NCBI GenBank assembly: GCA_964603435.1
Contig: CAZRUM010000003.1
Location: forward strand, 1-44,614
Length of the DNA stretch: 44,614 bases
Origin: an uncultured Gammaproteobacteria bacterium
Lineage (GTDB): Bacteria; Patescibacteriota; Patescibacteriia; Magasanikbacterales; UBA922
Direction of reading: 5' to 3'
The notes below the pieces were generated by a model that worked only from the letters and a program-made list of their open reading frames with translations, was not told where the DNA came from and made no database searches. Below, in pieces: positions 1 to 40,856 of this stretch. Both the position numbers and the translations under genes were made by a program. Each line of letters begins with the position of its first letter. The first letter of the stretch is position 1.

Positions 1-3000
1 CCCCATCAAGACTATTACACCACCCCCAGTTATCCAAAACCTGAACTTTTGGTTTAAAGACACAGACTTTTTCGGCATCTGAATTTAGCTTATAAATTTC
101 TCTTTTCATTTCATCTGTAAGAAGACCAATGCCCGGTAAAGAATCCGATTCAATATCAAAATTAGCACTTGCCAAATCACAACTAAGACTTTTGAAATAT
201 TCTTTGTAACTTGGCGTACAAGCACGTGGAGCATCTCCAAATCTACGCTCTCCTAAAGTACTATATCCTTCCGGTTGAGTTATATAATGACCAGTTTTTG
301 CACAAATTGTATTACCTACACCCATAAAAGTACAGTCTGCATTATCAAGACAAGTCATAGAAGTATTCCTACATCTGCCCAGCTCCTCTTCTTCGTAATT
401 AAACTCGTCTTTGCTAGCACAGTATGGTTTACTGTTTTTGAATAAACCATTTTCTATAAATAAATCATCATCACCATCATCCCAATTAATCATTACACGT
501 TTCAAAGGCATGTGATTGTCATCCACCGTTACAAAAAATCTAAGTATAGCTGGTAAGGTGCGATAGGCTACGATAGGGTCGGGATAGCCATCTAGTTTAC
601 CACCGTCTATACCATCCTCATCTGGGATTGGTACCCCGTCAGTACTAAAACCAAGACTATAATTATTCATAGTACCATTGCGCATATTGATGGTAAAATT
701 ATTTTCTTCGCCAGCAGTACACCTATCACTTTCAGCTGATACACAGATATCTGGATTAAGTGAATATATCTTTGGAGGAAAAGTTTCATTACCCCCATTA
801 CCCAAATCACCACTACGGTCCTCATCATTCAACAAACCAACTCCATAATTTGGCAACAGATTTTCTTCTTCTCCTTCTCCTGCAAATTTATAAGGAAAAC
901 CAGTAGTCGAATCAGGTTTTAAAGTTTTATTTATAAACACTTTTTTGAACACATCAAAAATAGCCTCTTGAGCTTCTGGTTTATCACGTTCGGACAAGCT
1001 ATCTACAAAATTATCAGAAAATACTCTTTTTGAATCATTATCCAAAAGATTTTTTAGACTACCACAATAATCTGTAAAACCATAATCAATACTTATCGAA
1101 GATAGCCAAGTTGTACGACAAGAATAAGGTATACCAAAATTTGCATATGACAAGAAAGAAGAATGGCGTAATACTTTTGGATCTTGAAAGTTTTCGCTTA
1201 TTGTTCCCTTGTCAGAGAGTATCATAGCTCCAAACGGTTTGTTTGGCTGGTCTTTTTCTAAGAATGATTTATAAAATGGACTAGGATGTCTCTTGCTGTC
1301 AGTATTATATTTTGGAGCAAATTCCCAAACCCTATTGGTCCAGGCCTTGTCTGTAGTCATGTTAAAATCAGCTCCTGGATCCTTATAAACCTGAGCAAAA
1401 TCAACACACTGATTATTTAGAGTAGCAATAGTAGCCAACATAATACCAGCATCTTCTGCATCTGCATTATTATGAGCAAAACAAAAACGAGAAACATAAC
1501 CCAAGAATTCTCCATCTTTGTTAAAATCCATACCAATAGCTAACCAATTATTTGTATTAAAACCCTTATCTTCTTCCCCTCCACTAAGACCAGAATACTC
1601 TTGAGTATCGTGTTTACATACAGTTGCAAAAGGATCATTAAGATGAAAAGACTCTTCACGACCATTGGTGGGGACATAATCTGTGTTATAAATACTCTCA
1701 ACCCCAAACCATTTTTGCAACACTTCTGTACTGTCAGCAAACAACATCACATATCTATCAGTTATTTTGTTTCTTTCGTCTGCAAGAGCATTAACAATAG
1801 CAGTATCTTCAGTAGAAAAAAGTCCATTCTCATAATTATTAAAAGATAAATCTACCAAGTCAACTTCATCCACATGATAAGACCACACAATATTTTTTAT
1901 TGTTTTGTTTCTACCCCTAGTAAAAATTTTAGATTCAGAATCAGAATAAGAAGCATTAGATATATTTTCTAAAAAATCAGACTTTACCCCATTTCTTAAT
2001 TTGTTGAAATCTATGTACATGTCTTTGGACAACAAGGCAGGCAACCTACCTTCAGCACCAAATGGAAAAGCCAAAGGAACAAAATATACCCTGTCTAAAT
2101 CTGAAATATTTAAAACACCTTCATATTTAGAACGATTAACCATGTTAGCAACATTATTTACATCACTCATCCAAGGTCCAGGAGACATAGCTATGGTTGA
2201 TATATTCCACCGACCATCACTCTCTGGAGGATCATAATAACTATCTTCTAATGATTGTTTTATATCTTGTTGTTTATAAAAATAACTGTAATCTGTGACA
2301 ACATTACTCTCTGGCCAGACCCTTGGAGGATGCATAATAGTACCATAGCTTACACGATTTGCGGTTGGGTGGGGAGCAAAAGAAAAAATACTTTTGATTG
2401 AAGTTTGATCATTGCTAGGAACCTCGTTATTACACCACTTTATATTCTCTCCCACATCTTTTTGTAAACAACCAAAACTGTATCCATCGCTTACCAAACC
2501 TGTTTCAGTACGCAACAATATACTATTTTTACCAATAAATTCCCAAGCCCATCTTTGCATCGTTCTTGACAAAGACCAAATTTCATTATCACAACAAACA
2601 GCTTTGTCATAACCTTCAGAGTTGGATATTTTTTCCTCATTTTCTTCCCCCCACATAGTGGGTTCACAAAATACAAGGCCACAATCCTTTTGTAAAAGAA
2701 GATCGGAATCAGCACAAACAGGATTGTCCAAATCGTCATTAAGTTCAGTACGTTTTGCTTTTTGGTAACCCTCTGGTAAAAAGTATTTATCATTTTGTAT
2801 TTCATTATACAAATCAGCTACCTTTGTTTTATCTGGATATGTTATTTCAAAAGTGGACGAAGCTATATTTACTGTTCTTGGCACCTGACTCTTAGTACCT
2901 GGATAATTATTTGCTTCACTACTAACTACATCAAATCTATATTCTACAGATAATTTCCAACCTTGAGCCACACACACATCAGCCGGACCAGTAAAAATAG

Positions 3001-6000
3001 GTTCATTCGGTTGATAATTTGGATATGCGGGTTTATTTTGAAATAGATAATCTACATCATATTTTGTAAAATCTACAACACCTTTGAACTCACCAAAATC
3101 AGGAGCAGGAACATTCATCCTAGGATTCCATGCCCAATGCCAAAAATGATAAGTATTTTCAGGAGTATTAGAAAAGGTTTTATCATCTTCATAAGGAGAA
3201 ACCGCAAAAGTATTTGTAGAATATGCAGGGAAAGCAGCACTAATAGGACCCCGGGCAACATTAGCTGGAGAAGATGATAAATCAACTCTTTTGTGCTTAT
3301 AAAGATTATTTTTATAACTTATAACACTCTCATCAAATACTATGTTTTTATTACCATTCTCATCTTCTAATTCTAACCAATCTGATTTAGCCTTATTTCT
3401 ATCTAAATATGCTTGACCTCCTAGTACCAATACATCATAAGTATTCCCCTCGTCGTTATTATCCTGCACAGTAGTATAAATGCTCTTATAGGGAATCATA
3501 CGATCTCTCCAATATATTTCCTTTCCATCATACTTAGCAACATAATCTTCCATTTCCTGTTTTCTTGCTTCTACCATATCTTTACAGCGATTATAGAATA
3601 CTTCAATTTTATGAGATTCGTTATTATAGGCTGAGTCTTGCTTAGTTGTTCCAAAAGCAAAAATATTTAAATCTATATTATCAGGATCATACGACATATA
3701 ACCTGTCATTTCCTCATCAAAATTATAATGATTATAAGATGATTCTACACAATAAGCTCCGGCTCCAGCTTCTCCATCTATTGCCAAATTGAAACCAGCT
3801 GAATCTGAAGATTCATATATATCAAATTTATTTTTTACTTCTTTTGGTAACCAGGTTAGACATGGGTATTCTACTACATTTCCACCTGGAGCTGCTTTTT
3901 TACCCAGTGGCCTACTCTTATCATACTCCAAACAAAAACCTTCTTGTCCCAAATAAGTACTTTGTGTTTGTTTTAATATACAAGTCCCCCTGTCATTAGC
4001 ATCTCCACAATCACGATCATCAAAACAAGGGACATTATCAGTTGGTAAAGTAGTATCCGTAGCATTGTCATAGCGCCCTCCACCAGAACAAATACCAGCT
4101 GGAATAGATTCATAAGTATATGGCCAATAATCAACTACTGAATTTCTATAAGTAACCTTACTATAACCACAGGAACATTCTCCATCCTGACAAACCTGAA
4201 CATTGTCAAATTCATTTTTCCTATAATCTAGCGCAAAACGTTTTACCCCAAGATCATTCTCAAAAACTTCATGTCCTACATTTGGATTCAAAACCAAAGC
4301 CTTAGAAAAAGGAGAATTGTCTTCTGGATAAGATTTGCAAGAAGTTGTTAGTAATTCTTTTTTGATGATTTCATCAGAAAGCTCTTCCACTGCAAAACCT
4401 ATTTCATCCCCACCGACTGGCATAACACAACCAATACCGTTTATACATTGACCTTTTTCTATCAATTTATCTCCCGCGTGGCTACCTGTATTTTCACATC
4501 TCTCTGCACCTTCAGAAGTATTACAATTAAATCTTTTGTCAACATAAACTAAATAGGGTTTATTATCTATATCAATTTGTTGCAAATCACCAACTGAAAA
4601 TTTGTTATAGAGAGAATAACCAGAATATTCTTCGTCATACCAGCTAGTACCACGACTAATATAATTTTCATAATCAAGAAAAGGTAACTCGCGCCCAAGA
4701 CTAGCAGAGGATTCCCACAAAGCACACTCACCACCTGGTCCCATCTCCAAACAACTACCATAGGAATAACATATTTTTTTACGAGTTCCATCAGCTTGCA
4801 AAATACTCTTATAACTTTGACAAGCTAACCATTCATTACAAGTCCTGTCACGATCAACTTTTAAAATTATATTGGCGTCCAAAACACCTGTACTTACTGG
4901 CCGAACAGGTAGATAACGCCCGACCTCTCCACTCGCATAATCTTTCTTTTGACTATTTGCTTCATAAGTAAGAGCTGTGTTATAAATTTTATTTGGCTCA
5001 TCAGTCTTATCAAATAAAACACAGCCATCATTTAAATTTACTTGGCTCTCACATTCTCTTGAACGTCTTTCTACTTCTTGGTCATAAATAATATAATAAG
5101 CACGTCCTGCTGAATCAATTCCGCCAGTATCAGCTTTATCAATTAATTCACGACAATTGTTGGCTGACGATGGACAGACACCTACCAAACCTTCGTACAA
5201 TACTGAACCATTGGAAGGTAATTGATATTCATAATTATGGCGAGGACCACAAGGTTCTGGCATTTCATCAATTTTTCCATCCTTATTTCTATCGATATCC
5301 CTATACCAACCGGAATATTGATTACCATTTTTATCTTCCACCAACGGACGATACACACACAAACCATTACCATTCAATTTTGGATCTTTGAAATAAGCCG
5401 GTCCATTGTCAGATTTAAATTCTCCACAAGATACCTGGTCACTAGTACATAAAGTATCACTATAATTACCTGGATCGTTTTTTACAAAAGTTTCGACAAA
5501 TTCAAAATCTGTGTCGATAGGACTAGTAGACCATTCTTTATATTCGCGCGCAGCTACTCTGGTACAGCCCATATCCTTATCATAACAAATATAATTTTCT
5601 GTATCTGTCAGATAAATTGGTGAATTTACTGGTGTATCGGCTGGAATAATAATTGTAGAATCAACTACCCAATCTTCAATCGCTTTAGCCTCTACTCCAT
5701 ATGGAAGCATAACTTCCTCAACAAAACAACCAGTCTGTCCATTTTCTATCTGACAAGTCCCAAGCTCTTCTGGTTCAACCCCTATTTCCCCCTCTGCTTC
5801 TATTTCAATTTTACATTCACCTACATAATCAACAACATCACTGACACACCACAAATTGTAAACCAAGACATCTTCAGAATCCAGGGTATTATAGGTATCA
5901 TACAAAGCAGTACAACCCACTGCCTCAGGTCGACACAGGCTATCAAAGCCAATTGCAAAAGCAGTTCTATCTCTATCATCTCTGTAAGCCTGACAACCTA

Positions 6001-9000
6001 GAGCCAAACCTGGGAAACCATCGTATGGACTAACATCGCAAGAAGTAGAAATATCATAACCTTCACTAGTTTTCCAAGAATCTTTTATAAGAGCATATTG
6101 ATCTTCCAATCTAGTAACACGTACATTATCCAAATAATAACTCTTTCCAGAAGTACGAGGATCAACAATAAACTTCAGACCAACTTCACTACTAGTAGTA
6201 CCCGTAAATTGTACTGGACCAAATTTATATTCTTGCCATTCATTACCGAGAGATACTGGCAAATTTTGTTGTAAATTTATATCATAAGTAAAACTACTAT
6301 TTTCAAATTCAGCTTGTTTAAAATAAATTTCATTAATATTTTGTGCCTCACCGCGAGCCCAAAAACTCAATTCATACCAAGCATAGCTATCAATATCTTC
6401 ACCAGGTTGAAATATATAAGTTATATCACTTGACGCTTGCAAGGAATACCCACCAACATAAATCGATTCCGGTCTGACTTTGGCAGTAGAGGTCCAGCCA
6501 GTCTGAGCTATTTCCAAAGCAGCATCATCATCTGATGTCGGTTCAAAACCAGCAAAGTAAACTTCTTCTATATTACCACCTTGATTTCCTACATATTTAC
6601 GACAACCATTGGCAATAGCAGGACAAGAAATTGATTCACTAGGAATAGAATAATAAATACAGGTCTGATAGCCTTCATCATAAAAACCACCATTACTACA
6701 GCGTTGGCACTCACCACTACCACCGTCATTACCATTCCAAAGACCACCTTTTCTAGTACAGCTATCTGCTGAATCTAGATTATTATCAACAGCCAGATAT
6801 GCTTTTGTCTTGCGCAGAGGATGACAATCATCTGATACAATCACCGTCTTACTTAAAATTCTATAATATATACTACCTTCTCTATCATAAAGTGCCCGGC
6901 AACCTGAATCAAAACCACGAGCCCCCAGATTGTATGGACTATTTAGATGTAAATTATATATATCTTCATTACAGCTAGCATAATTTTCTTCCAATTCTAC
7001 TTCACTATCACCCGCATACACTGGGGAACCAAGTGGAAAATCTGACCTAAGACTAGCAAAAGCAGTCGCATCCAAATAAGCGACGTCATCAACATCCACT
7101 GGCTTCATCCGATGAATTTTCAACACATAACCTGTCAATTCAGAACCTTCCCAAGAATAATAAGCTTTTTCATTTTCCCCACTAGGATCTTCACAATATT
7201 TTAAATCAATATAATATTCCAAACCTTCACCACCAGCAGACATCTCATCTATGTTGGTAAATTGATCACAACCAGCATAGACACCATTACATTCATTGGC
7301 GCCTTGACTAGAATAGTCATTACCAGGAGTGAAATAAAGTGGAAATTCTTCTGGTTCAAACTCTGTTGCTAACTGTTTATAAGTATCATAACCCACACAC
7401 TCAGCCTGACAGAGATTATCACCAATAATACCAGGAATTTCTGGACTAGTTGGATCAGCTATACTAGAATACAACTGACAACCCACTTCACTTGAGATAC
7501 AAACCTGTGAAAAATCTGCACATTCCTCTGGTCGATCTTTTATAGACACCAGATCAACTTTGGTCTGTGGCCAGTCTATGTCATACTCTCCATCGTAAAT
7601 ATCTTTGTCATAACAACCCAGATAATCTGGTGCTTTTTGCAAATAAACTGGATTACCCTGTCCCCCATCATCCCTCACATCATAAAAAAGATTACAACCA
7701 TCGGCGTCTTCGCTACAAGTGAAGTTGGCAATTTTATTATTAAAATAAATATTTTGATTCCAACTACTTAGTTTTTTATCAACATCAAGCTCTAGGTTTG
7801 TTAGCCAACCTTCTTTATCTCCTTCTAGGGCGTAAGGTTGACAACCCACAGACTCGAGATTACAACGACCATAATCAAGTGTCCTATTTAAATATGGGAT
7901 TACTTCACCTTTATTATTTACATAAGTCTGGCAAGTATTGTATTGTTTATCACAAGTCTCAACCCCTAGTTTCCAAATATTTTTTTCTTGTAAACAATAA
8001 CTATAATAATTTTCTATTTTATTAGTATCCGTTTGACTCTCTTCTTCTGTAAAAATTGTAGTTGAATACTCTACACATTCTGTCCGCCTAACATCTCCGC
8101 CTGAGTCAATTAGCTGTGGACCCACAACCAGAGATTCACAACGAATCTCGGGAATTTTTAAAATCCAATTTGGATTGACAAGATGACAAAAAGGTTTGGC
8201 AGAACTTGGTACCACTATTTCATTACCACTTGAGTCCTTTTCATAATTACAATCCTCAAAACCATTCACCACATTTTCTAAAGTCCAATTTTCTAGATTG
8301 TCAGGATCAGCCCTCAAAGCCGCAATCTCAAAACCAAGTGGCAAAATTCTCGCTTTTCTTAATTTTTGAATATTATAATAACAATAACCATTTTGATAAC
8401 AACGAACAACATCCTGATTATCAATTTCACGCTTTGGTGAAATAAATGACCACTTGGCATGCAACATGTCTTGATCCATTGCCTCTTTAATAGTTAGAGG
8501 GTTATCTTCTGTTCTGCCAACTTCCAAAGCTCTCTGCAAACCAGTATCCATGACACAATTATTAAGACTGAGACCAGCCCCACTCTCTTCACAAGCTGCA
8601 AATTCTGTAAGTAATGGATAATTATTTAACTGTTGATTGGGAAAATCTGTAAATAAAAAGCTGAAAGCTTTCTCGGCCTTTTCTTTATTTAATACAACTT
8701 GACTATAAAAATCTGTAACTGCCTCAGTAGAGGCATCACCTGACGACGATCCAGACAACAAGTCCCCACTCATTAATCTGTCCAATAAACTAGTGGCCAA
8801 AGTATTCAAAAAGACACTCGCAGCCTGAGGTAATATTTGTAACATCCCTGCACCATAAACACCTGCTATTTGTTCAGATGTCATTTTTGAATTATGAGTT
8901 GCAGAAAATAATTCCATTTCTTTGGCCACGGTTTGACCAGGAGTTTTTATCTTATCAGAAATAAGATCTGTAACTGCTTTTATGCCTCCCCCTTCTAATC

Positions 9001-9808
9001 TTGATACTTCGGCGGATTTTTCTTCCTTAGCTTTCAAACGATCGAGTTGTGCCATAGCCCCCATTGCAATACCAAAATCTGTATCTTTGACACGAATAGA
9101 ATCATGAAAAGTACGAGCAATCAATCCACGACCACCAGGACCATATTTTCTTTCAAAGGCCTCAGCGCTCCAAGAATCGCTTAAGTTTTGCCAATTACAT
9201 TTTGGGGTAGGCCCGCCACTGTTCGCACCATTGACTCCATACTCATTATCATACATATTGCGCAAGCCAATCTGAATATACAATTGAGCTTGTAAATTTG
9301 GTGTCTGACAAAGATTGAGACCAAAAGGTTGGCCAAATGATTCTATACCCTCAGCTACTGAATCCAAAGCTACATTTTTAAAATAATCACCTGGAGAATT
9401 TTGGTAAATAAGAGCCCCCTTACCCTTACCACCATAAGACACGTACTTAGCTGCATCATAAGCCAACTTACGTGTAAAATATGACATACCATTCATCAAA
9501 GCTGACATAGCAGCAGCTGTCATGCCGGTTTCTACTTGTTCGAGTATTGACACAATTGTAGAAGGTGTATCCGCAACTACAGCTACAGGTGCTCCTAACG
9601 CATTTTTACCTGCATTTGAAGCCGCCTTAGCTGCCTCTGCCGAGTTCGCTATTTTATCTAATGATTCAAATAAAGAAGTCAAAGGGGGTAGCGCAGCCTG
9701 TGCACTATTTTTAGAAGTCAAAGAAAAAATCCCAAACAAATTCACCAACAAAAAAATCACCAATAGAATACTTAGGCCTGCTTTATTTTTTTTATTTAAA
9801 AAATACAT
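1..9808 (-). CDS. giant secreted cysteine-rich surface protein; 5' end complete, 3' end beyond window (at least 3269 codons)
   Basis: Hand translation of the reverse complement from ATG 9808-9806 stays open in one frame to base 2. The track lists no ORF in this frame because it never reaches a stop; the four minus ORFs listed inside it are in another frame. N-terminus MYFLNKKNKAGLSILLVIFLLVNLFGIFSLTSKNSAQA looks like a signal peptide. Many Cys modules follow. Confidence 0.85.
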   Translation of the reverse strand, partial: MYFLNKKNKAGLSILLVIFLLVNLFGIFSLTSKNSAQAALPPLTSLFESLDKIANSAEAAKAASNAGKNALGAPVAVVADTPSTIVSILEQVETGMTAAAMSALMNGMSYFTRKLAYDAAKYVSYGGKGKGALIYQNSPGDYFKNVALDSVAEGIESFGQPFGLNLCQTPNLQAQLYIQIGLRNMYDNEYGVNGANSGGPTPKCNWQNLSDSWSAEAFERKYGPGGRGLIARTFHDSIRVKDTDFGIAMGAMAQLDRLKAKEEKSAEVSRLEGGGIKAVTDLISDKIKTPGQTVAKEMELFSATHNSKMTSEQIAGVYGAGMLQILPQAASVFLNTLATSLLDRLMSGDLLSGSSSGDASTEAVTDFYSQVVLNKEKAEKAFSFLFTDFPNQQLNNYPLLTEFAACEESGAGLSLNNCVMDTGLQRALEVGRTEDNPLTIKEAMDQDMLHAKWSFISPKREIDNQDVVRCYQNGYCYYNIQKLRKARILPLGFEIAALRADPDNLENWTLENVVNGFEDCNYEKDSSGNEIVVPSSAKPFCHLVNPNWILKIPEIRCESLVVGPQLIDSGGDVRRTECVEYSTTIFTEEESQTDTNKIENYYSYCLQEKNIWKLGVETCDKQYNTCQTYVNNKGEVIPYLNRTLDYGRCNLESVGCQPYALEGDKEGWLTNLELDVDKKLSSWNQNIYFNNKIANFTCSEDADGCNLFYDVRDDGGQGNPVYLQKAPDYLGCYDKDIYDGEYDIDWPQTKVDLVSIKDRPEECADFSQVCISSEVGCQLYSSIADPTSPEIPGIIGDNLCQAECVGYDTYKQLATEFEPEEFPLYFTPGNDYSSQGANECNGVYAGCDQFTNIDEMSAGGEGLEYYIDLKYCEDPSGENEKAYYSWEGSELTGYVLKIHRMKPVDVDDVAYLDATAFASLRSDFPLGSPVYAGDSEVELEENYASCNEDIYNLHLNSPYNLGARGFDSGCRALYDREGSIYYRILSKTVIVSDDCHPLRKTKAYLAVDNNLDSADSCTRKGGLWNGNDGGSGECQRCSNGGFYDEGYQTCIYYSIPSESISCPAIANGCRKYVGNQGGNIEEVYFAGFEPTSDDDAALEIAQTGWTSTAKVRPESIYVGGYSLQASSDITYIFQPGEDIDSYAWYELSFWARGEAQNINEIYFKQAEFENSSFTYDINLQQNLPVSLGNEWQEYKFGPVQFTGTTSSEVGLKFIVDPRTSGKSYYLDNVRVTRLEDQYALIKDSWKTSEGYDISTSCDVSPYDGFPGLALGCQAYRDDRDRTAFAIGFDSLCRPEAVGCTALYDTYNTLDSEDVLVYNLWCVSDVVDYVGECKIEIEAEGEIGVEPEELGTCQIENGQTGCFVEEVMLPYGVEAKAIEDWVVDSTIIIPADTPVNSPIYLTDTENYICYDKDMGCTRVAAREYKEWSTSPIDTDFEFVETFVKNDPGNYSDTLCTSDQVSCGEFKSDNGPAYFKDPKLNGNGLCVYRPLVEDKNGNQYSGWYRDIDRNKDGKIDEMPEPCGPRHNYEYQLPSNGSVLYEGLVGVCPSSANNCRELIDKADTGGIDSAGRAYYIIYDQEVERRSRECESQVNLNDGCVLFDKTDEPNKIYNTALTYEANSQKKDYASGEVGRYLPVRPVSTGVLDANIILKVDRDRTCNEWLACQSYKSILQADGTRKKICYSYGSCLEMGPGGECALWESSASLGRELPFLDYENYISRGTSWYDEEYSGYSLYNKFSVGDLQQIDIDNKPYLVYVDKRFNCNTSEGAERCENTGSHAGDKLIEKGQCINGIGCVMPVGGDEIGFAVEELSDEIIKKELLTTSCKSYPEDNSPFSKALVLNPNVGHEVFENDLGVKRFALDYRKNEFDNVQVCQDGECSCGYSKVTYRNSVVDYWPYTYESIPAGICSGGGRYDNATDTTLPTDNVPCFDDRDCGDANDRGTCILKQTQSTYLGQEGFCLEYDKSRPLGKKAAPGGNVVEYPCLTWLPKEVKNKFDIYESSDSAGFNLAIDGEAGAGAYCVESSYNHYNFDEEMTGYMSYDPDNIDLNIFAFGTTKQDSAYNNESHKIEVFYNRCKDMVEARKQEMEDYVAKYDGKEIYWRDRMIPYKSIYTTVQDNNDEGNTYDVLVLGGQAYLDRNKAKSDWLELEDENGNKNIVFDESVISYKNNLYKHKRVDLSSSPANVARGPISAAFPAYSTNTFAVSPYEDDKTFSNTPENTYHFWHWAWNPRMNVPAPDFGEFKGVVDFTKYDVDYLFQNKPAYPNYQPNEPIFTGPADVCVAQGWKLSVEYRFDVVSSEANNYPGTKSQVPRTVNIASSTFEITYPDKTKVADLYNEIQNDKYFLPEGYQKAKRTELNDDLDNPVCADSDLLLQKDCGLVFCEPTMWGEENEEKISNSEGYDKAVCCDNEIWSLSRTMQRWAWEFIGKNSILLRTETGLVSDGYSFGCLQKDVGENIKWCNNEVPSNDQTSIKSIFSFAPHPTANRVSYGTIMHPPRVWPESNVVTDYSYFYKQQDIKQSLEDSYYDPPESDGRWNISTIAMSPGPWMSDVNNVANMVNRSKYEGVLNISDLDRVYFVPLAFPFGAEGRLPALLSKDMYIDFNKLRNGVKSDFLENISNASYSDSESKIFTRGRNKTIKNIVWSYHVDEVDLVDLSFNNYENGLFSTEDTAIVNALADERNKITDRYVMLFADSTEVLQKWFGVESIYNTDYVPTNGREESFHLNDPFATVCKHDTQEYSGLSGGEEDKGFNTNNWLAIGMDFNKDGEFLGYVSRFCFAHNNADAEDAGIMLATIATLNNQCVDFAQVYKDPGADFNMTTDKAWTNRVWEFAPKYNTDSKRHPSPFYKSFLEKDQPNKPFGAMILSDKGTISENFQDPKVLRHSSFLSYANFGIPYSCRTTWLSSISIDYGFTDYCGSLKNLLDNDSKRVFSDNFVDSLSERDKPEAQEAIFDVFKKVFINKTLKPDSTTGFPYKFAGEGEEENLLPNYGVGLLNDEDRSGDLGNGGNETFPPKIYSLNPDICVSAESDRCTAGEENNFTINMRNGTMNNYSLGFSTDGVPIPDEDGIDGGKLDGYPDPIVAYRTLPAILRFFVTVDDNHMPLKRVMINWDDGDDDLFIENGLFKNSKPYCASKDEFNYEEEELGRCRNTSMTCLDNADCTFMGVGNTICAKTGHYITQPEGYSTLGERRFGDAPRACTPSYKEYFKSLSCDLASANFDIESDSLPGIGLLTDEMKREIYKLNSDAEKVCVFKPKVQVLDNWGWCNSLDG

Positions 9809-9811
9809 AAA

Positions 9812-10495
9812 TTATGGTAAAATTTCTTGTAAATTTGTACTAGTTGTAGTGATAAGATCTACCGTCTCTCCTTGTGCACTCATCATTTCCTGAACTAAAG
9901 ATAACAAAGTCTTATCATCAATCTCATCTAACTGTTCTTTACCAATAGTACCTGTACCAAGTAACATCTCTCTCAACTTTTCAGGATCTTGAAGAGAACT
10001 TAAAACAGCGGTCATGTCGCCACCTTCTTCTTCCACCAAACCAGCATCACTCAAAATATCAAACGGTGTATTAGAACCATCTTGCAAAGGCGAGACTATT
10101 ATTTCTTCTGGTGGAGTTGGCAATTCGCCCTGATAGATACTACAATCAGCTCCTGCTGGACACAATGGATCTGCACCTTGATCAATCTCTACTTTGTCAT
10201 CCAAGCCATCAGAATCTGTATCTGAAAGATATGGACTAGTCTCATAAAAATTTAATTCTTCCCAGTCATTGAGACCGTCATGATCTGTATCGATACTCTG
10301 CAAAACCATATCTTGATTTTCAAATAAATTCTGCAAGTCATCAGCTTCTGTAAGACGCACTGAAAAAGGATTGTATATATTATTACGCATTTGCAACATC
10401 CCTAGACCAATAGTCATAAAACCAAAAATAAGCAATAAGACAAAACCCGTCTTCTGCGTTCCGGTAAGACCTGTTTCTTTTTCTTGATGATCCAT
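9812..10495 (-). CDS. membrane-anchored calcium-binding repeat protein (thrombospondin type-3-like DxDxDG repeats)
   Basis: N-terminal TM (GFVLLLIFGFMTIGLGML). Two repeats, DTDHDGLNDWEE and DTDSDGLDDKVE. Stop TAA at 9814-9812 lies one codon upstream of the giant ORF ATG, in the same frame. Confidence 0.8.
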   Translation of the reverse strand: MDHQEKETGLTGTQKTGFVLLLIFGFMTIGLGMLQMRNNIYNPFSVRLTEADDLQNLFENQDMVLQSIDTDHDGLNDWEELNFYETSPYLSDTDSDGLDDKVEIDQGADPLCPAGADCSIYQGELPTPPEEIIVSPLQDGSNTPFDILSDAGLVEEEGGDMTAVLSSLQDPEKLREMLLGTGTIGKEQLDEIDDKTLLSLVQEMMSAQGETVDLITTTSTNLQEILP

Positions 10496-10603: not shown

Positions 10604-11458
10604 TTATTTTTGTACTTTCGTATTTTTAGTGTTTAGTATATCTGTTATTTCTTTCCACTGCTCTACTAACAACTCCTCTGCTCTAATTTTTTCATTCCCT
10701 GTTACAGTATTTAATATATGTTTAATTTGCTCAGCTTCAATTTTTAAACCCACTGCCAAATTCCGCCATAACTGTTTACGCTTATTAGCAAACCCTACTC
10801 TTACTACTTCGAAAAACTCTTTATCTGTAAAGGTGGTTGAGTGGTTAGGTGGTCGAGTGGTGATGTGCAAAACCGCACTATCTACCTTTGGGCTCGGCCA
10901 AAAATTTCCTTTAGAAACTTTGGCTATTTTTTTAGACTGCCCATAGTATTGAACTGACACTGCCAGCATACTCATATCTCCTGGCTTGGCTACAATACGA
11001 TCAGCCACTTCTCTTTGCACCATGACAGTAATGGACTCTGGTTTATTTTCTAATTCAAGCAGTGTTCTTAAAATATTGGAAGTAATTTGATATGGTAGAT
11101 TTGCTACCACCTTATAACCTTTAAATTTTTTACTTTCTTCTTCTATCTTGTTTAAAACATTTCCCCAAATTACTTCTAAATTTTCTGAAGAATTTTCTTG
11201 CCAATATTTTTCTAATTTTTTTTCAATTTCAAAAGCTAAAACTTTTTTAACTTTTTCTGTAAGTGCAAAAGTAAGTACACCAAAACCAGGTCCAATTTCT
11301 ACTACAATATCAGACTTTTTTAAATCAGCTGCCTCTAGCATTTTCTTTACAGGTGAATCAGTAATCAAATAATTCTGCCCATATTTTTTGGACGGACTTA
11401 AATTATACTTTTTGCAAAGTTCTTGAAGGTAAGTTGGACGAAATAAATCTTTGTACAT
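10604..11458 (-). CDS. rsmA: 16S rRNA (adenine1518/1519-N6)-dimethyltransferase
   Basis: KYGQNYL...VVEIGPGFGVLT SAM motif and NLPYQITS motif. The internal ATG at 11458 (MYKDLF) is preferred over the track start at 11479. Confidence 0.9.
   Translation of the reverse strand: MYKDLFRPTYLQELCKKYNLSPSKKYGQNYLITDSPVKKMLEAADLKKSDIVVEIGPGFGVLTFALTEKVKKVLAFEIEKKLEKYWQENSSENLEVIWGNVLNKIEEESKKFKGYKVVANLPYQITSNILRTLLELENKPESITVMVQREVADRIVAKPGDMSMLAVSVQYYGQSKKIAKVSKGNFWPSPKVDSAVLHITTRPPNHSTTFTDKEFFEVVRVGFANKRKQLWRNLAVGLKIEAEQIKHILNTVTGNEKIRAEELLVEQWKEITDILNTKNTKVQK
10831..10867. repeat. AGGTGGTY octamer array inside rsmA
   Basis: Plus strand AGGTGGTT GAGTGGTT AGGTGGTC GAGTGGTG ATGTG. Encodes HITTRPPNHSTT on the coding strand. 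Confidence 0.7.
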
Positions 11459-11502: not shown

Positions 11503-11892
11503 TTATCTTTTATCTTTTTGCCTATGCCAATCGTTTATCTGATTATTAATTTTAATTTTAAGTTGTTCATATCTTTTTTCTAGCTCTAACCATTTTTCTT
11601 TTTTTACATACTTTTGACTATAAGCTATCCAGAGATGACTTTGGGTTTCTTCTACTTCACCACGTACAATATAGAATACTCTAATTTTATCTTTGAAATG
11701 AAATCTACCATGTGCTTCGGCAGTATTAGCTACTATAGAATTGGATGATCTTCTAGTTTGGCTTATTAAAGAAAACTTTTCTTCTTCTGGATAATTTTTG
11801 GTAATATTATAGACTTCCTTTACCAGTTCAAATCCTTCTTGCCAAATATCAGTCTGATAAAATTTTTTATATTTTATTTTTTCACCCTCCAT
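11503..11892 (-). CDS. four-helix-bundle protein (23S rRNA intervening-sequence protein family)
   Basis: Family-typical motif RRSSNSIVANTAEAHGR and a length of about 120-130 aa. Confidence 0.85.
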   Translation of the reverse strand: MEGEKIKYKKFYQTDIWQEGFELVKEVYNITKNYPEEEKFSLISQTRRSSNSIVANTAEAHGRFHFKDKIRVFYIVRGEVEETQSHLWIAYSQKYVKKEKWLELEKRYEQLKIKINNQINDWHRQKDKR

Positions 11893-11980: not shown

Positions 11981-13135
11981 TTACTCCGCAGACAACAACC
12001 CCGCACTCGTATATCGATTCGCTGCATTCCATAACAACCACCCACCATCACTGTATTTTTCTACCATATCAATTTGTTGACGAATTTTTACTCCATCAGA
12101 ATACACTGCACCGATATCAAATGCTTGCAACCAAGGACGAACTTTAGCACGCTTACCTTCAAAAGTTGGCATACCTTTTTTCATACCATTTTCAATAATG
12201 ATTCCTGGAATCTCTGCTGGATTTTCTACCCCAAAAGAATTTCTTGAGTAATGTGACGGATACATCATAGGGCAAATATAATCAGTCGAGTCCACTGCAT
12301 CTACCATGCGCTGACCAATGTGCAAATCACCAGTACGCTCCATAACATAACCAAACATATCCAATGAAATCCAAGCTCTCTCTTTGTCTAGTTGTTCACT
12401 CAAATGGGCATAAAACCGTTGCATTACTTCATACCTAGGTTCATCGCCAGTATTGTAAACTACCAGACTCATATTGCCGTCAGATGGAAACCTGACATAA
12501 TCAAAATTGATTTCATCAAAACCAAATCTAATCGCCTCTTTAGCAATTGCCACGTTATAATTCCACACCTCACTTCGAGTTGGATCTACCCAAGCCAGCC
12601 CTTTATTATCTCGCCATATTCCACCATTTTTAGACTTTATAGACCACTCTGGTTTTCTTTCTGCCAAAACAGGATCTTGAAAAACAGTTTGACGTGCAAT
12701 TACATAAATATCATTATCATGAAATTTTTGTATAATACTTTTTACATCACCCAAACGATTCGTCTCTGTTTTAAATTCATTTACCCAAAGTAAATTGCTA
12801 TCATACATTACATATCCAGAATAATCTTTGATATCAATAACGACAGCGTTTAATTCTGTCTTATTAATTAAATCAATGATACGATCAGTAGTCTTGTTAC
12901 TAGAAGCTGAATAGGCTGTCAGATAAAGACCTTTTACCTCTCGTTTGTTGGGTTTTTGTCTTTTTATTTTCAAATCTACTTCAAGATTTTTCTTTGGTGT
13001 AATATTATTAGCTTCAAAGAATAAATTTTCTTCAGTCTGCAAAGTATCAGACCAACCCCAACCCACCAACAAAAAAGCTACTAGGCCTATCCCTATAGCT
13101 AATATAAAATATAATTTTGGATGTTTGTGATTCAT
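11981..13135 (-). CDS. membrane-anchored putative glycoside hydrolase (DUF4015-type TIM barrel)
   Basis: N-terminal TM, then VKGLYLTAYSA...NAVVIDIKD...FDEINFDYVRFP, recalled as typical of the DUF4015 family. Confidence 0.7.
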   Translation of the reverse strand: MNHKHPKLYFILAIGIGLVAFLLVGWGWSDTLQTEENLFFEANNITPKKNLEVDLKIKRQKPNKREVKGLYLTAYSASSNKTTDRIIDLINKTELNAVVIDIKDYSGYVMYDSNLLWVNEFKTETNRLGDVKSIIQKFHDNDIYVIARQTVFQDPVLAERKPEWSIKSKNGGIWRDNKGLAWVDPTRSEVWNYNVAIAKEAIRFGFDEINFDYVRFPSDGNMSLVVYNTGDEPRYEVMQRFYAHLSEQLDKERAWISLDMFGYVMERTGDLHIGQRMVDAVDSTDYICPMMYPSHYSRNSFGVENPAEIPGIIIENGMKKGMPTFEGKRAKVRPWLQAFDIGAVYSDGVKIRQQIDMVEKYSDGGWLLWNAANRYTSAGLLSAE

Positions 13136-13744: not shown

Positions 13745-13787
13745 GATTTAAGATTTAAGACTTATGACATAAGACTCATTGACATTT
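13745..13787. repeat. heptamer array (GAYWTAA-type) at the 3' end of four-helix-bundle gene 2
   Basis: GATTTAA GATTTAA GACTTAT GACATAA GACTCAT, then GACATTT. The inverted copy GACATAA GACTTAA GATATAG lies at 14141-14161. Confidence 0.65.
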
Positions 13788-14132
13788 TATAAGACCATTC
13801 AACATCCTACCAATTTTTCTAGCCTTATTGGTCAATTCTTCTGCCTGTTTCAAATTAATATATTTTAAATGTAAAGTTAATATAAAATAATATTTAGTCT
13901 CTTCAAGTGAGGTATCAGACATTGTATAAAAATGTTTTCTATCTTTTGATGTTTTTCTTTTTGTTCCTTCTACAATATTAGCTACGATTGAGACCGATGA
14001 TCTTCTCACTTGAGACACTAAACCATACAACTCGTGTTTAGGAAAATCCTCTGTAATCTTATAAACCTCCAAAACTAATTTATGTGCCTCAAACCACACA
14101 TCTAATTTTCTCCATTTTTCTAATGTTTCCAT
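13776..14132 (-). CDS. four-helix-bundle protein (23S rRNA IVS protein family)
   Basis: RRSSVSIVANIVEGTKR motif; 118 aa. Confidence 0.85.
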   Translation of the reverse strand: METLEKWRKLDVWFEAHKLVLEVYKITEDFPKHELYGLVSQVRRSSVSIVANIVEGTKRKTSKDRKHFYTMSDTSLEETKYYFILTLHLKYINLKQAEELTNKARKIGRMLNGLIKCQ

Positions 14133-14161: not shown

Positions 14162-15265
14162 CTATACCTCTTTTAACCAACGTAAATAACTTTCAACAAA
14201 AGGTTCAACGTCCCCATCAAGCACTGCTTTATCATCTGTAGTTTCATATTTACTACGCAAATCTTTTACCATATGGTATGGATGCAGGACATAACTACGA
14301 ATTTGATTCCCCCACTCTGGACTCTTGTATTCACCGCGAAGTTTTAATCTTTCTTCTTCATCTTTTTCTTCCTGAAGTTTTTGTAATCTTGATTGTAAAA
14401 CCTTCATGGCCACTTTTTTATTTTGCAATTGTGATTTTTCATTTTGAATAGCAACTGTGATATTGGTTGGGAGATGAACTATACGCACAGCTGAGTAAGT
14501 GGTGTTTACAGACTGACCACCATGACCACCAGCCATAAAGGTATCAATACGTAAATCATTCTCATCAATTTTTACGTCACCTTCATCTTCCATTTCTGGA
14601 ATTACTTCGACAAGTGCAAAAGAAGTATGGCGCATTTTTTCTGCATCAAAAGGTGAAATACGCACCAAACGATGTGTACCATGTTCGGATTGCAAATAAC
14701 CATAAGCAAACTGCCCCTCTACACGAAAGGTAGTTGATTTTATCCCAGCTTCATTTCCCTTGGCTTCGTCAAGAATTGTCACTTTCCAATCTTTTTTCTC
14801 AGCATAGCGTAAATACATACGAAGTAACATCTCTGCCCAGTCTTGAGCTTCTGTTCCACCACTACCAGCATGAATAGAAACAATGGCATTTTTTTCATCA
14901 TGTTTGCCATCCAATAAAGTATTGAACTCTAACTTGTCTACTTTTTTAATAAGCTCTTCATAATCATTTTCAATTTCTTCACGCATATTTACTTCTCTGT
15001 CTTCTTCGTCTAGTTTTGCGACTTCCAGCAATTCTTGTGATTCTTTATCAAGCATTTGCCAACTCTCAAATTCTTCTTTTAGAAAACCAAGGCGCTTACT
15101 CTTTTTGGTCGCTTTCTCTTGATCATTCCAAAAATCTGGAGCATTCATAACACTTTCTAATTCTTGAACTTCCTTCTGTTTTTCTTCCAATCTCAACATC
15201 ACTCGCAAGTTAGCCAGTTTTTCACGAAGTTCTCCTAAATTTTTCACCAAATCATGCATTTCCAT
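14162..15265 (-). CDS. prfB: peptide chain release factor 2
   Basis: SPF motif (RISPFDAEKMRHTS) and GGQ motif (GGHGGQSVN). Single continuous frame. The track start at 15301 is a TTG lying inside an upstream terminator, so ATG 15265 (MEMHDLV) is preferred. Confidence 0.9.
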   Translation of the reverse strand: MEMHDLVKNLGELREKLANLRVMLRLEEKQKEVQELESVMNAPDFWNDQEKATKKSKRLGFLKEEFESWQMLDKESQELLEVAKLDEEDREVNMREEIENDYEELIKKVDKLEFNTLLDGKHDEKNAIVSIHAGSGGTEAQDWAEMLLRMYLRYAEKKDWKVTILDEAKGNEAGIKSTTFRVEGQFAYGYLQSEHGTHRLVRISPFDAEKMRHTSFALVEVIPEMEDEGDVKIDENDLRIDTFMAGGHGGQSVNTTYSAVRIVHLPTNITVAIQNEKSQLQNKKVAMKVLQSRLQKLQEEKDEEERLKLRGEYKSPEWGNQIRSYVLHPYHMVKDLRSKYETTDDKAVLDGDVEPFVESYLRWLKEV

Positions 15266-15277
15266 ATCTCTTATAAT

Positions 15278-15308
15278 ACAAAACTCTCGAGCTTTTAGCA
15301 ACCGAGAG
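15278..15308 (-). terminator. intrinsic terminator after the DUF4870-like gene
   Basis: CTCTCG / CGAGAG stem flanked by A/T runs. Confidence 0.5.
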
Positions 15309-19395: not shown

Positions 19396-19428
19396 AAAAA
19401 TAAAAAGACCACCTATGATTAGGTGGTC
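19396..19428 (-). terminator. yidC intrinsic terminator
   Basis: Minus strand GACCACCT AATCAT AGGTGGTC followed by TTTTTATTTTT. Confidence 0.7.
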
Positions 19429-19452
19429 AGGTAGTTAGGTAGTTAAGTGATT
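19421..19452. repeat. AGGTGGTY octamer array, four units, between the yidC stop and its terminator
   Basis: AGGTGGTC AGGTAGTT AGGTAGTT AAGTGATT. The first unit is the terminator arm; the last overlaps the stop codon. Confidence 0.75.
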
Positions 19453-20251
19453 ACTCTACTTTCCCCTCAATCACATTTTCTTCTTTTCCGACCGAGACGG
19501 ATCCGCCTTGGGTGGATTTATTATTAGCAGGAGCATCTTTTGGTGCATTTCTCTTGAATACTACCAACTGTTGTAAGGCAGTCAAGAAAGTTGATAAGAA
19601 CCAATACAGAGTCAGACCACCTGGAAGTTGGAAACCTATAATAACTGTCAGTACTGGCATGAAATAAAGCATTTGTTTATTCATCATACTGGCCATACCT
19701 TCGTCTTTACCTCCCTTACCGGCTACTACTGGTGGTTTCTTGCGACTCATCATCCTAGCTTGCCAGAACTGAGCTCCACCAGCCATAAGTGCCAAGACTG
19801 GAGCAACTTTACCAAGCTCCATAAAACCAAGTGAAAGTGTCTTTATACTTTCTGGTTGAGTTACAAAAGTATAAAGCAAATCAAAACTTGGATCTACTGT
19901 TAAAACCTTACGCAAAACATAATACAGAGAAATCAAAATCGGCAACTGAATAAGTAAAGGCAAACAAGAACCAAAAGGATTTACTTTGTTTTCCTTATAC
20001 ATCTTCATGGTCTCAGCCGCTACTTTTTGTTGATCACCAGCATGTTTCTTTTTTAGAGCCTCTAGTTTTGGTTGTAGATCTGTTAAAGCCTTTTGTGACT
20101 TGATAGAGCTAGAAGTAAGAGGATATAGAACCAATTTGATAATCACAGTAATAATCAAAATCACAATACCAACATCTGGTATTAGATTATATAGTGCGAT
20201 AAAGGCATTAAAAATTGGCTGGTAAAGTATTGTTTGAAATATTGCTGACAT
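19451..20251 (-). CDS. yidC: membrane protein insertase YidC (short Oxa1-type)
   Basis: NPFGSCLPLLIQLPILISLY motif and five TM segments. Confidence 0.9.
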   Translation of the reverse strand: MSAIFQTILYQPIFNAFIALYNLIPDVGIVILIITVIIKLVLYPLTSSSIKSQKALTDLQPKLEALKKKHAGDQQKVAAETMKMYKENKVNPFGSCLPLLIQLPILISLYYVLRKVLTVDPSFDLLYTFVTQPESIKTLSLGFMELGKVAPVLALMAGGAQFWQARMMSRKKPPVVAGKGGKDEGMASMMNKQMLYFMPVLTVIIGFQLPGGLTLYWFLSTFLTALQQLVVFKRNAPKDAPANNKSTQGGSVSVGKEENVIEGKVE

Positions 20252-22096: not shown

Positions 22097-22166
22097 GTTA
22101 CTAATACACCTACAAATTTTAAAGCCAACACCCCACACTTAAAACTCTCATCCTATCTCTCTTTCT

Positions 22167-22325
22167 GCGAACAACCCCTCCACCCTTCGGGCACCTCCCC
22201 TTTAGGGCACACTATCCTTTAGGGAGAATGGGGAGGGAATTTGAAAAATACTTTCCCCTCCTCCACTTTTCGCCAGGGGACGAATCCTCTAGAGAGCTAA
22301 GGAAGGAGGTCAGGAGGTGGGTTCC
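22167..22325. repeat. modular GC-rich intergenic repeat, copy 1
   Basis: Block A (22167-22202) matches 42048-42083 at 35 of 36. Block B TTTAGGGCACACTATCCTTTAGGG (22201-22224) is identical to 42123-42146. CCTCCCC/GGGGAGG hairpin arms. Confidence 0.8.
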
Positions 22326-22811: not shown

Positions 22812-23174
22812 TCAAATTTCTTTTTTATTTTCTGCTTTGTCTATAATTGTAGATAATATTTTCCTCAATTCTACTGATTCATTTATTAAAGGTTTCATTT
22901 TTTCTTCAAGTTCTAAATTTGCTTCAACTATCAAATTGAACCAGTAGGTTGTTTCTTTACATTCTTTTCTGGAAATTTTTACTCTATGTTTAAAATCTTT
23001 TTTACTTAACTTTTCGTTAGCCTCTATATAATTAGCTCCAACTGATGAGCTAGACCTCAAAACCTGATCCGACAATCTTCTATTTATATTATCCTTTGGT
23101 AAAGCTTTACATAATCTCATTACTCTTTTTGAAAATTCCAATGTTCTTTCTTCTAAATCATAGATTTTATTCAT
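22812..23174 (-). CDS. four-helix-bundle protein (23S rRNA IVS protein family)
   Basis: LRSSSSVGANYIEANEK motif. ATG at 23174 preferred; the track extension reads through a flanking heptamer array. Confidence 0.85.
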   Translation of the reverse strand: MNKIYDLEERTLEFSKRVMRLCKALPKDNINRRLSDQVLRSSSSVGANYIEANEKLSKKDFKHRVKISRKECKETTYWFNLIVEANLELEEKMKPLINESVELRKILSTIIDKAENKKEI

Positions 23175-23228
23175 ATTTGTAATTTGAAAGTTATTTGGAA
23201 TTTGGTAGTTGTAATTTGTAATTTTCAA

Positions 23229-24077: not shown

Positions 24078-24103
24078 ACAAAAAACCACCTCAAAGAGGT
24101 GGT
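24078..24103 (-). terminator. trpS intrinsic terminator
   Basis: Minus strand ACCACCTC TTT GAGGTGGT followed by TTTTTTG. Confidence 0.7.
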
Positions 24104-24136
24104 CAGGTGGTTAAGTAGTTAGGTGGTAAGGTATTT
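24097..24136. repeat. AGGTGGTY octamer array, five units, between the trpS stop and its terminator
   Basis: AGGTGGTC AGGTGGTT AAGTAGTT AGGTGGTA AGGTATTT. Confidence 0.75.
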
Positions 24137-25118
24137 ATCTAACCCCTATCATCTTCCTAACGCTCTCCATAGTACCCTCGGCCACAGGTTTGGCTTTCTT
24201 GGCACCAGCAATTAGAATCTCTGCCAGCTCATCATGATTTTCAAGTAATTCATTTCTCTTGTCACGAAAATCTGCAAAATAAGTTGAGACAACCTCAGCC
24301 ACATCAGCTTTCAAATCTCCATAGCGGATACTTCCAGCTTTTTCAGCCTTTTTATATTCTTCTAATTTTGCTTTGTCACCAAAATTTTCTAATAAAACAA
24401 ATAAATTTTCTACACCAGGAGCATTCTCTCCACCCTCACTGGCTGTCACAGCTTTTTTAAGTTTTTTTACAATCACTGCTGGCTCATCTGCCAGCTCAAT
24501 CACGTGCCCCTCACCCAAACTTTTACTCATTTTCTTGGTTGGTTCTAATAGGCTCATTACTTTTGGTACTGGAGTAAGAAGATGTTTTGTTTCTGGAAAA
24601 TATTTATTGTATTTTTTATTAAACCAACGAGCTGTATCACGAGTCAATTCCACATGTTGAATTTGATCCTGTCCGACTGGCACGTGAGTACCATGGTAAA
24701 GTAAAATATCAGCAGCTTGTAAAATTGGGTAGGTAAACAAACCAGCATTAATATTTTTTGCTTGTCGTTCGGATTTATCTTTATACTGAGTCATACGTTC
24801 TAACTCAGCTATTGGTGTCACACTATTAAAAATCCAAGTAAGCTCGGTATGCTCTGGTATATGTGACTGTACATAGAAAGTAGATTTTTCTGGATCAATC
24901 CCAGCAGCAATAAGCTCGGCAGCAGTGCGGATAATCTGAGCGTGACGTTCTTCTGGTTTCATATTACCTGTAAGAGAATGATAATCAGCAATACAAAAAT
25001 AACACTCATACTCACCGGAGTTTTGTAAATCCACCCAGTTTTTTACAGCTCCCAGATAATTACCAATATGTAAATTACCAGTTGGCTGAATAGCGGAGAA
25101 AATTACTTTTTTAGACAT
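24135..25118 (-). CDS. trpS: tryptophan--tRNA ligase
   Basis: FSAIQPTGNLHIGNY (HIGH-type) and KMSKS motifs. ATG at 25118 preferred. Confidence 0.92.
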   Translation of the reverse strand: MSKKVIFSAIQPTGNLHIGNYLGAVKNWVDLQNSGEYECYFCIADYHSLTGNMKPEERHAQIIRTAAELIAAGIDPEKSTFYVQSHIPEHTELTWIFNSVTPIAELERMTQYKDKSERQAKNINAGLFTYPILQAADILLYHGTHVPVGQDQIQHVELTRDTARWFNKKYNKYFPETKHLLTPVPKVMSLLEPTKKMSKSLGEGHVIELADEPAVIVKKLKKAVTASEGGENAPGVENLFVLLENFGDKAKLEEYKKAEKAGSIRYGDLKADVAEVVSTYFADFRDKRNELLENHDELAEILIAGAKKAKPVAEGTMESVRKMIGVR

Positions 25119-30847: not shown

Positions 30848-30885
30848 AAATAATATATTTTTAAATAAATGAAGAATAAATATTG

Positions 30886-30967
30886 TGCCGATGGTGGGAC
30901 TCGAACCCACACGCCGTGAAGCATGCACACCTGAAGCGCACGTGTATACCAATTTCACCACATCGGC
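30886..30967 (-). tRNA. tRNA-Leu (anticodon CAG), long variable arm, no encoded CCA
   Basis: Hand-folded cloverleaf: acceptor GCCGATG/CATCGGC, anticodon stem TGCGC/GTGCA with loop TTCAGGT, T arm GTGGG TTCGAGT CCCAC. Confidence 0.85.
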
Positions 30968-40799: not shown

Positions 40800-40800
40800 A

Positions 40801-40856
40801 AAGTAATCAGGTGATTAGGTGGTAAGGTGGTAAAGTGGTTGAGTAGTTAAGTGCTC
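40801..40856. repeat. AGGTGGTY octamer array, seven units, filling the rodA to four-helix-bundle spacer
   Basis: AAGTAATC AGGTGATT AGGTGGTA AGGTGGTA AAGTGGTT GAGTAGTT AAGTGCTC. Overlaps the rodA stop. Confidence 0.8.

Follow-up and report, generated by a model that had tools for sequence, protein, structure and literature searches.

Several bacteria belonging to the Candidate Phyla Radiation (CPR; Patescibacteria) code for giant envelope proteins that are proposed to function in recognizing and attaching to another cell (PMC8080830, PMC13059738). Those of Vampirococcus lugosii are 1,392 to 4,163 aa long and contain WD40, TPR, PKD, or saposin domains (PMC8080830), and Strigamonas methylophilicida (Absconditicoccaceae) has proteins of >1,500 aa with FN3, Ca-adhesin repeat, ConA, and integrin domains (PMC13059738). 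Here we describe a giant gene of the Magasanikbacteria, which are treated as an order of the class ABY1 (PMC12577380), and the small gene directly upstream of it, coding for a predicted membrane partner. Both are located at one end of contig CAZRUM010000003.1 (assembly GCA_964603435.1), of which positions 1 to 44,614 of the forward strand constitute the window, the whole stretch of DNA analyzed here. The giant-protein family is real, well delimited, and previously uncharacterized, and no description of the giant protein was found among the publications listed as mentioning Magasanikbacteria.

Among known systems, it comes closest to the giant envelope proteins found in other CPR bacteria, both episymbionts and predators. 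The likeness lies in great size, an export signal or transmembrane segment, and a reduced Patescibacteria genome, and with at least 3269 aa and a signal peptide the protein described here is of the size and export type proposed for host attachment. We found no sequence homology to the Vampirococcus or Strigamonas giants, however, and whereas theirs have recognizable interaction domains and occur several per genome, the family here has only a jelly roll resembling carbohydrate-binding modules (CBMs) and is Cys-rich, nonrepetitive, apparently single copy, order-wide, syntenic, and accompanied by a dedicated partner gene. Recognized adhesion domains (PKD, FN3, WD40, integrin, and ConA) were not detected in the giant protein in searches of Pfam, NCBIfam, PHROGs, and PDB.

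Other large or Cys-rich surface proteins are more distant. Adhesins of the RTX, LapA, and Bap types have long tandem Ig-like or cadherin-like arrays, are usually Cys-poor, leave the cell by type I secretion, and often vary between strains. They are likewise giant, acidic, extracellular, and calcium associated, although here the calcium motifs are on the partner, and the giant protein differs in lacking tandem repeats, in its predicted Sec signal peptide, in its Cys content (3 to 4.4%), and in being coded by a core gene. A repeat adhesin was rejected, as self-BLAST gave only the identity match, Tandem Repeats Finder (TRF) gave none, and hhalign gave only Cys-hairpin matches of 24 to 33 columns. 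Type I secretion was also rejected, given the Sec signal peptide, the housekeeping neighbors, and the lack of conservation of the downstream genes, and the protein does not group with S-layer proteins, having no SLH or wall-anchoring domain and 3.0% Cys. The chlamydial OmcB and OmcA and the planctomycete YTV proteins are extracytoplasmic, with many conserved cysteines thought to stabilize the envelope; the giant protein is similarly Cys-rich and predicted to be extracytoplasmic, with putative cross-linking, but we detected no relation in sequence or fold, and the sizes and envelope types differ. The SPEARE proteins of the Nanohaloarchaeota (DPANN) are surface proteins of several thousand residues in an ultrasmall symbiont, with a proposed role in host contact, but they have protease, adhesion, and nuclease domains, none of which was detected in the giant protein.

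A 9.8-kb gene at the contig edge

The gene pair and the parts of the giant protein (all on the minus strand, with amino acid positions counted from ATG 9808) are as follows.

9812..10495 (-): partner gene, 227 aa, stop codon 3 nt before the giant ATG
2..9808 (-): giant open reading frame (ORF), 3269 sense codons, 3' end beyond the window edge
9695..9808 (-): predicted signal peptide, aa 1-38, with a Lys-rich n-region, hydrophobic core LSILLVIFLLVNLFGIFSL, and SAQA-A cleavage site
8609..9694 (-): Cys-poor, Ala-rich N-region, aa 39-400 (composition, alignments, and AF2)
3719..8608 (-): conserved acidic Cys-rich core, aa 401-2030, 1,630 residues with 71 Cys
6101..6547 (-): predicted Cys-free beta-jelly-roll, CBM4/9/22-like, aa ~1088-1236 (Pfam, AF2, and Foldseek)
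1409..3718 (-): hypervariable region, aa 2031-2800 (alignment occupancy and length variation)
2549-3718 (-): orphan insert, aa 2031-2420, inside the hypervariable region
2..1408 (-): conserved C-terminal region, aa 2801-3269 (conserved alignment columns)

The 9.8-kb open frame is a real gene. The original prediction, made by reading the reverse complement, was that no stop occurs from ATG 9808 to base 2 (at least 3269 codons), and machine translation of 2-9808 agrees, with 0 stops in 3269 codons; the five other frames of the same interval have 136 to 476 stops each, which rules out a chance open frame. The region had seemed empty of ORFs because ORF listers omit those that cross the window edge. 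ATG 9808 is the earliest possible start, with an in-frame TAA (9812-9814) one codon upstream that doubles as the stop of the partner gene, and homologues can be aligned with the giant protein from residue 1.

At its other end the frame is still open at the window edge and the C-terminus is missing, as had been predicted, and the translation there reads ...KPKVQVLDNWGWCNSLDG, identical to the sequence reported earlier. The closest C-terminal fragment (P0336, 66% identity) extends 53 aa beyond the NWGWC motif, and in the family the tail beyond this signature motif has a median length of 54 aa, terminating in ...Y-x-G-x-I-I-V-x-P. From these tail lengths, ~48 codons have probably been lost at the contig edge, giving a predicted full length of ~3,317 aa. 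The stop codon was not recovered from other contigs coding for an identical partner protein, which are only 6.2 and 1.6 kb long, and the last 330 aa as a query returned only fragments with ≤66% identity.

Mis-assembly of the giant gene appears unlikely. There are no tandem or dispersed DNA repeats within it (TRF and a repeat comparison of the window), an independent Joint Genome Institute (JGI) contig holds its first 998 codons together with an identical partner protein, and the giant protein is collinear with homologues of 2,700 to 3,300 aa, which also argues against mis-assembly.

An order-wide, syntenic gene family

More than 130 proteins, 2,700 to 3,300 aa long and with 27 to 44% identity, were retrieved in a word-indexed search, all annotated as 'hypothetical protein'; where source names are informative they are Candidatus Magasanikbacteria or Patescibacteria, with two apparent binning errors. 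With aa 39-1235 as the query, exhaustive searching by phmmer identified 1,333 clusters (at 50% identity), of which 1,047 match at E<=1e-30, and the best 150 clusters are all collinear from the N-terminus. Relatives are present in 258 species genomes, one of which is a complete 1.23-Mb chromosome, where the giant gene accounts for ~0.7% of the DNA (~1.2 Mb). By these searches the family is large yet sharply bounded.

The gene order RF1, Sua5, KsgA, small protein, and giant protein is kept even in homologues of 27 to 30% identity. KsgA precedes the small (partner) gene in 70 of 82 loci, and the small gene is directly upstream of the giant gene on the same strand in 77 of the 82, the remaining five having no upstream sequence. 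The genes downstream of the giant gene are unrelated between loci, and a conserved downstream partner was rejected. The core of the giant protein diverges almost as slowly as KsgA (mean p-distances of 0.56 and 0.49, respectively), and the gene run in the window (KsgA, Sua5, RF1, YidC, NusA, TrpS, RNase J, and FtsW) consists of housekeeping genes and is typical of CPR genomes. The giant gene thus appears to be an order-wide, syntenic, and apparently single-copy core gene. It had been described as the only clearly accessory locus in the window, a description that its presence in 258 species genomes and 1,333 clusters, its fixed synteny, and its slow core all contradict, and an accessory island was rejected given the conservation of gene order across loci.

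A co-encoded, predicted membrane partner

The original prediction made no mention of the co-encoded membrane partner. This 227-aa protein has a predicted N-terminal transmembrane helix (aa ~16-36, hydropathy 2.18) and a very acidic tail, with 46 acidic and nine basic residues in total. It contains two thrombospondin type 3 Ca-binding motifs, DTDHDGLNDWEE and DTDSDGLDDKVE (nt 10142-10291), which include a C-x5-C pair. The match to Pfam TSP3_bac is below threshold (21.4 bits, with a cut-off of 25). About half of the partner homologues listed carry a precomputed PF18884 annotation, and some have the NCBI name 'thrombospondin type 3 repeat-containing protein'. Two D-x-D-x-D-G-x-x-D Ca-binding motifs are present in 56 of 77 partner orthologues, and by motif the partner fits the bacterial thrombospondin type 3 repeat proteins (PF18884). 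The partner family consists only of proteins of 205 to 282 aa, from Magasanikbacteria wherever the name is informative.

The 3-nt gap between the two genes occurs in the window and in distant homologues alike. Pairwise distances across 65 genomes show that the small protein and the giant core covary (r = 0.85) more closely than either does with KsgA (r = 0.68 for the small protein and 0.70 for the giant core). The correlation between the pair persists when controlling for KsgA (partial r = 0.71), whereas that between the small protein and KsgA falls to a partial r of 0.24 when controlling for the giant protein. This covariation supports a functional pair, with the usual mirror-tree caveats.

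In the window, two elements known by pattern match only lie between KsgA and the partner gene.

10573-10557 (-): terminator-like hairpin after KsgA, with a T-run
10550-10522 (-): promoter-like TTGTGA-17-(TG)TATAAT before the partner gene (consensus scan)

The promoter-like site is a near-consensus extended -10 and, together with the hairpin, would part KsgA from the gene pair; in distant homologues, KsgA directly adjoins the small gene or overlaps it.

Predicted architecture of the giant protein

The Lys-rich n-region and AQA-A cleavage site of the signal peptide had been recognized earlier and hold up on comparison, with the n-region, hydrophobic core, and small-x-small pattern recurring in 104 of 120 homologues. 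The 19-residue hydrophobic core (Kyte-Doolittle 2.71) is the sole strongly hydrophobic segment of the giant protein, there are no other transmembrane segments, and the protein has a net charge of about -212. The N-region that follows (aa 39-400) has 0.6% Cys, with two conserved Cys residues (C167 and C204), is predicted to be all-helical (AF2, low confidence), and contains the motifs SYFxRKLAYD and QIAGxYGxG..SVFLNTL conserved in alignments. Its earlier description as Cys-poor and Ala/Gly-rich is accurate for Cys and for Ala (12.2%) but not for Gly, which at 9.1% is close to the 8.4% of the core; that it belongs to no recognizable family was borne out, with no matches to PDB or Pfam.

The giant protein has 98 Cys residues, 3.0% overall and 4.4% in the core (aa 401-2030), an enrichment of 5- to 8-fold over the 14 other window proteins, which average 0.55%. 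The predicted Cys-rich character is therefore correct, but its extent had been put at more than 2500 aa packed with cysteines and is smaller, as aa 2031-3269 have ~2% Cys. Among 60 homologues (~37 to 45% identical), 88 of the 98 Cys residues are conserved in ≥80%, including 70 of the 71 in the core, where mean pairwise identity is 41 to 49%. The core has 12 C-x6-C motifs (3.0 expected by shuffling), and a short hairpin-like module, C-x6-C-x2-[YF], present in at least 12 copies, is its only recurring element; profile matches between these hairpins span 24 to 33 columns at 30 to 57% probability (hhalign). There are no large internal repeats, as self-BLAST of the giant protein returned the identity match alone. 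Spacings of the CxxC type are rare, which favors disulfides over metal clusters, and the conserved cysteines, export signal, and scarcity of CxxC together point to ~44 structural disulfides.

Pfam and HMMER searches, repeat comparisons, and structure prediction in segments followed by Foldseek, all proposed with the original prediction, identify a CBM-like jelly roll as the sole recognizable module. The query scores below the Pfam threshold for CBM_4_9 (PF02018; E=0.18, 12.6 bits, cut-off 25.9), five of 16 homologues match it at E<=0.01 (best 1.7e-5), and PF02018 is precomputed on several homologues. AF2 predicts the segment with a predicted local distance difference test (pLDDT) score of 80 to 92, and Foldseek matches it to CBM22 (4xup and 4xuo), CBM4-2, CBM16, and CBM61 at E values of 1e-6 to 3e-5, with target-normalized TM-scores (TMt) of 0.47 to 0.63 over ~140 to 180 columns; jelly rolls of phage tail fibers are likewise matched. 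The fold of aa ~1088-1236 is predicted to be a CBM-like beta-jelly-roll that can be superposed on solved CBMs. The likeness to CBM4, CBM9, and CBM22 lies in this predicted fold, although here there is one module in mid-protein with no recognizable glycoside hydrolase attached, its Pfam score is subthreshold, and ligand binding is putative only.

The hypervariable region (aa 2031-2800) is internal, with conserved parts on both sides. Alignment occupancy over aa 2001-2400 is only 0.09 to 0.47, the region is 386 to 782 aa long in homologues with 28% pairwise identity, and aa 2030-2420, used as a BLAST query, matched none of 120 homologues and none of 84 loci. Within the conserved C-terminal region are a beta-rich segment, FF.TVDDNHMPLKRVMINWDDG, and, at its end (nt 17-55), the family signature KPKVQVLDNWGWC (family motif VQVLDNWGWC). 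The signature is present in 89 of 120 homologues, and the C-terminal region is the only one shared by the most distant homologues.

Pfam, NCBIfam, PHROGs, and PDB (phmmer and profile) were searched with the entire protein, with a profile of 16 sequences, and with three segments, and gave only the weak CBM_4_9 match. The AF2 model of aa 39-1235 is of usable confidence only in aa ~398-558 and ~808-1235, and its Foldseek matches in PDB and BFVD are confined to jelly rolls, of CBMs or tail fibers; the model of aa 2410-3269 has a pLDDT of 53.5 and no fold matches at E<1.

Proposed role and alternatives

The conservation of the giant protein and its small membrane partner across the Magasanikbacteria makes it probable that the giant protein is a core structure of the cell surface. 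The reading that we prefer, with our confidence evenly balanced between its being right and wrong, is that the two genes form a surface module, part of the core equipment of this candidate order, for contact with glycans or a host. The ~3,300-residue protein would be exported by Sec and its signal peptide removed, and it would fold outside the cytoplasm as a nonrepetitive body of several domains, held together by some 44 conserved disulfides. Surface retention would be through the cotranslated single-pass membrane partner, with its acidic Ca-binding ectodomain serving as a tether or assembly partner, and the CBM-like jelly roll and lineage-specific hypervariable segment would face outward, touching glycans or the surface of a partner (host) cell. 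The formation of disulfides, retention at the surface through the partner, and an adhesive or contact role are all inferred, and a host-attachment organelle, as originally suggested, is plausible.

A good lead for experiments, the pair is a concrete candidate, open to test, for the lineage's main surface structure. Over 2,000 residues have no Pfam, PDB, or fold match and are a likely source of new folds, the gene pair is a marker for the order, and the defined hypervariable cassette could be compared with the hosts that co-occur. Magasanikbacteria abound in groundwater and are uncultured, and the module would bear on how most Patescibacteria other than Saccharibacteria and Absconditabacteria make contact with, or rely on, other cells. 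A bolder version, which we offer tentatively and would not expect to hold in full, is that the Ca-binding tether and the ~3,300-residue, ~44-disulfide ectoprotein are an undescribed lineage-defining surface organelle, either a host-contact device or a disulfide-locked exoskeleton, in which an interchangeable hypervariable cassette sets partner specificity.

We note several points that weigh against a contact module. Its support comes from sequence and predicted structure; the membrane topology of the partner is a prediction, and mirror-tree correlations can come out too high where rate classes are shared. In the two AF2 models, 537 of 1,197 residues and 435 of 860 have a pLDDT of <50 (~45% of each), and family and PDB searches detect no recognized anchoring domain, adhesin repeat, or interaction domain besides the CBM-like module. 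We know of no host on record for Magasanikbacteria, and neither cultured Magasanikbacteria nor imaging data were found in the publications listed as mentioning the lineage. A structural or essential role in the envelope would account for the order-wide conservation, fixed housekeeping neighborhood, and slow core no less well than host-specific adhesion.

Such a role is the main rival, in which the giant protein is an envelope scaffold or coat, a constitutive disulfide-cross-linked structural protein with the small Ca-binding membrane protein as its anchor, which in function would resemble S-layers or the Cys-rich envelope proteins of Chlamydia and Planctomycetes; we regard this as a real but lesser possibility. 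The universal presence of the gene and its fixed synteny by RF1, Sua5, and KsgA, which the pair in some cases adjoins or overlaps, suggest expression of a housekeeping kind, and a core that diverges almost as slowly as KsgA in a nonrepetitive, highly acidic protein with many conserved cysteines would suit a coat. Family searches detect no SLH or other wall-binding domain, however, and the hypervariable internal segment and CBM-like domain suggest ligand contact; classical S-layer proteins, moreover, are Cys-poor and usually much smaller, which counts against a scaffold.

A secreted enzyme or toxin-like effector, with a hidden catalytic activity (e.g., polysaccharide or cell wall degrading) or a pore-forming one, directed by the CBM-like module against substrates or host cells, is improbable. 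Modules of the CBM4/9/22 type are typically joined to glycoside hydrolases, a DUF4015 putative glycosidase gene is nearby in 39 of 82 loci, and Foldseek lists CBM-bearing toxins such as iota Ib, CDTb, Cry4Ba, and Vip3; the arrangement of a helical N-region, then beta-rich domains, and a jelly roll is loosely like that of three-domain toxins. We note, however, that the toxin matches have root mean square deviations of >20 Å over long alignments and so share only the jelly roll, that Pfam, NCBIfam, PHROGs, and PDB profile searches detect no catalytic or toxin family, and that the C-terminus is conserved rather than polymorphic, with no conserved immunity-like gene downstream.

An artefact (a chance frame, pseudogene, or assembly chimera) has next to no probability and is effectively refuted: the contig does terminate within the giant gene and aa 2031-2420 have no homologue in the family, but 3269 codons are free of the stops that number 136 to 476 in the other frames, 1,047 clusters at E<=1e-30 are collinear from the N-terminus, 88 cysteines are conserved, the JGI contig independently carries the first 998 codons and an identical partner protein, and the gene is free of DNA repeats.

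Two further candidates were considered and rejected. A polymorphic toxin of the Rhs or CDI-like kind is at odds with a variable part that is internal, a conserved C-terminus, and downstream genes that are unrelated between loci. For the target of a diversity-generating retroelement, there is no direct repeat involving the giant gene and no reverse transcriptase among the window ORFs scanned.

Neighboring genes and repeats

The window contains four paralogous genes of the 23S_rRNA_IVP or bAvd-like four-helix-bundle type, present singly and scattered between housekeeping genes, with no reverse transcriptase or template/variable repeat seen near them in the window.

11503-11892 (-): bAvd-like gene (family match)
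13776-14132 (-): bAvd-like gene (family match)
22812-23228 (-): bAvd-like gene (family match)
40416-40799 (-): bAvd-like gene (family match)

The DUF4015 (GHL6) putative glycoside hydrolase gene is located between Sua5 and KsgA (11981-13135, minus strand) and is the gene found in 39 of the 82 related loci. There are two class I release-factor genes with PCRF and RF-1 domains (14162-15301, minus strand, and 34169-35224, plus strand); the first is within the conserved block RF–Sua5–(DUF4015)–KsgA–small–giant, and the second is followed by PrmC (35208-36053, plus strand). A few kilobases downstream of the giant gene, some of the related loci have another very large gene that is unrelated to it. 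In L084 (17087-21615) it codes for >2,386 aa with matches to SpvB, RHS, TcdB_toxin_midN, FG-GAP, and Laminin_G_3, and in L002 (20999-25885) for 1,628 aa with no Pfam matches.

The longest RNase J ORF (29003-30961, GTG 30961) shares its 5' end with a tRNA-Leu(CAG) gene (30885-30967) that overlaps it, and RNase J probably starts in truth at a site further downstream. A dispersed repeat whose period is 8 nt, (GTGGTTAG/GTGGTTGA)n in plus-strand orientation, is present at five sites (10817-10880, 19415-19454, 24099-24146, 37050-37097, and 40795-40858). Three are intergenic, just after the minus-strand YidC, TrpS, and FtsW genes, and two are within ORFs, those of KsgA and the linker between two DUF3048 domains. 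A GC-rich element of ~100 nt with CCCTTCGGG-type hairpins is present in two copies (22164-22261 and 42045-42153; 89 to 95% identity in parts), both intergenic and just upstream of the minus-strand NusA and FtsW genes; it has no Rfam match and is perhaps a small mobile repeat, perhaps a leader RNA.

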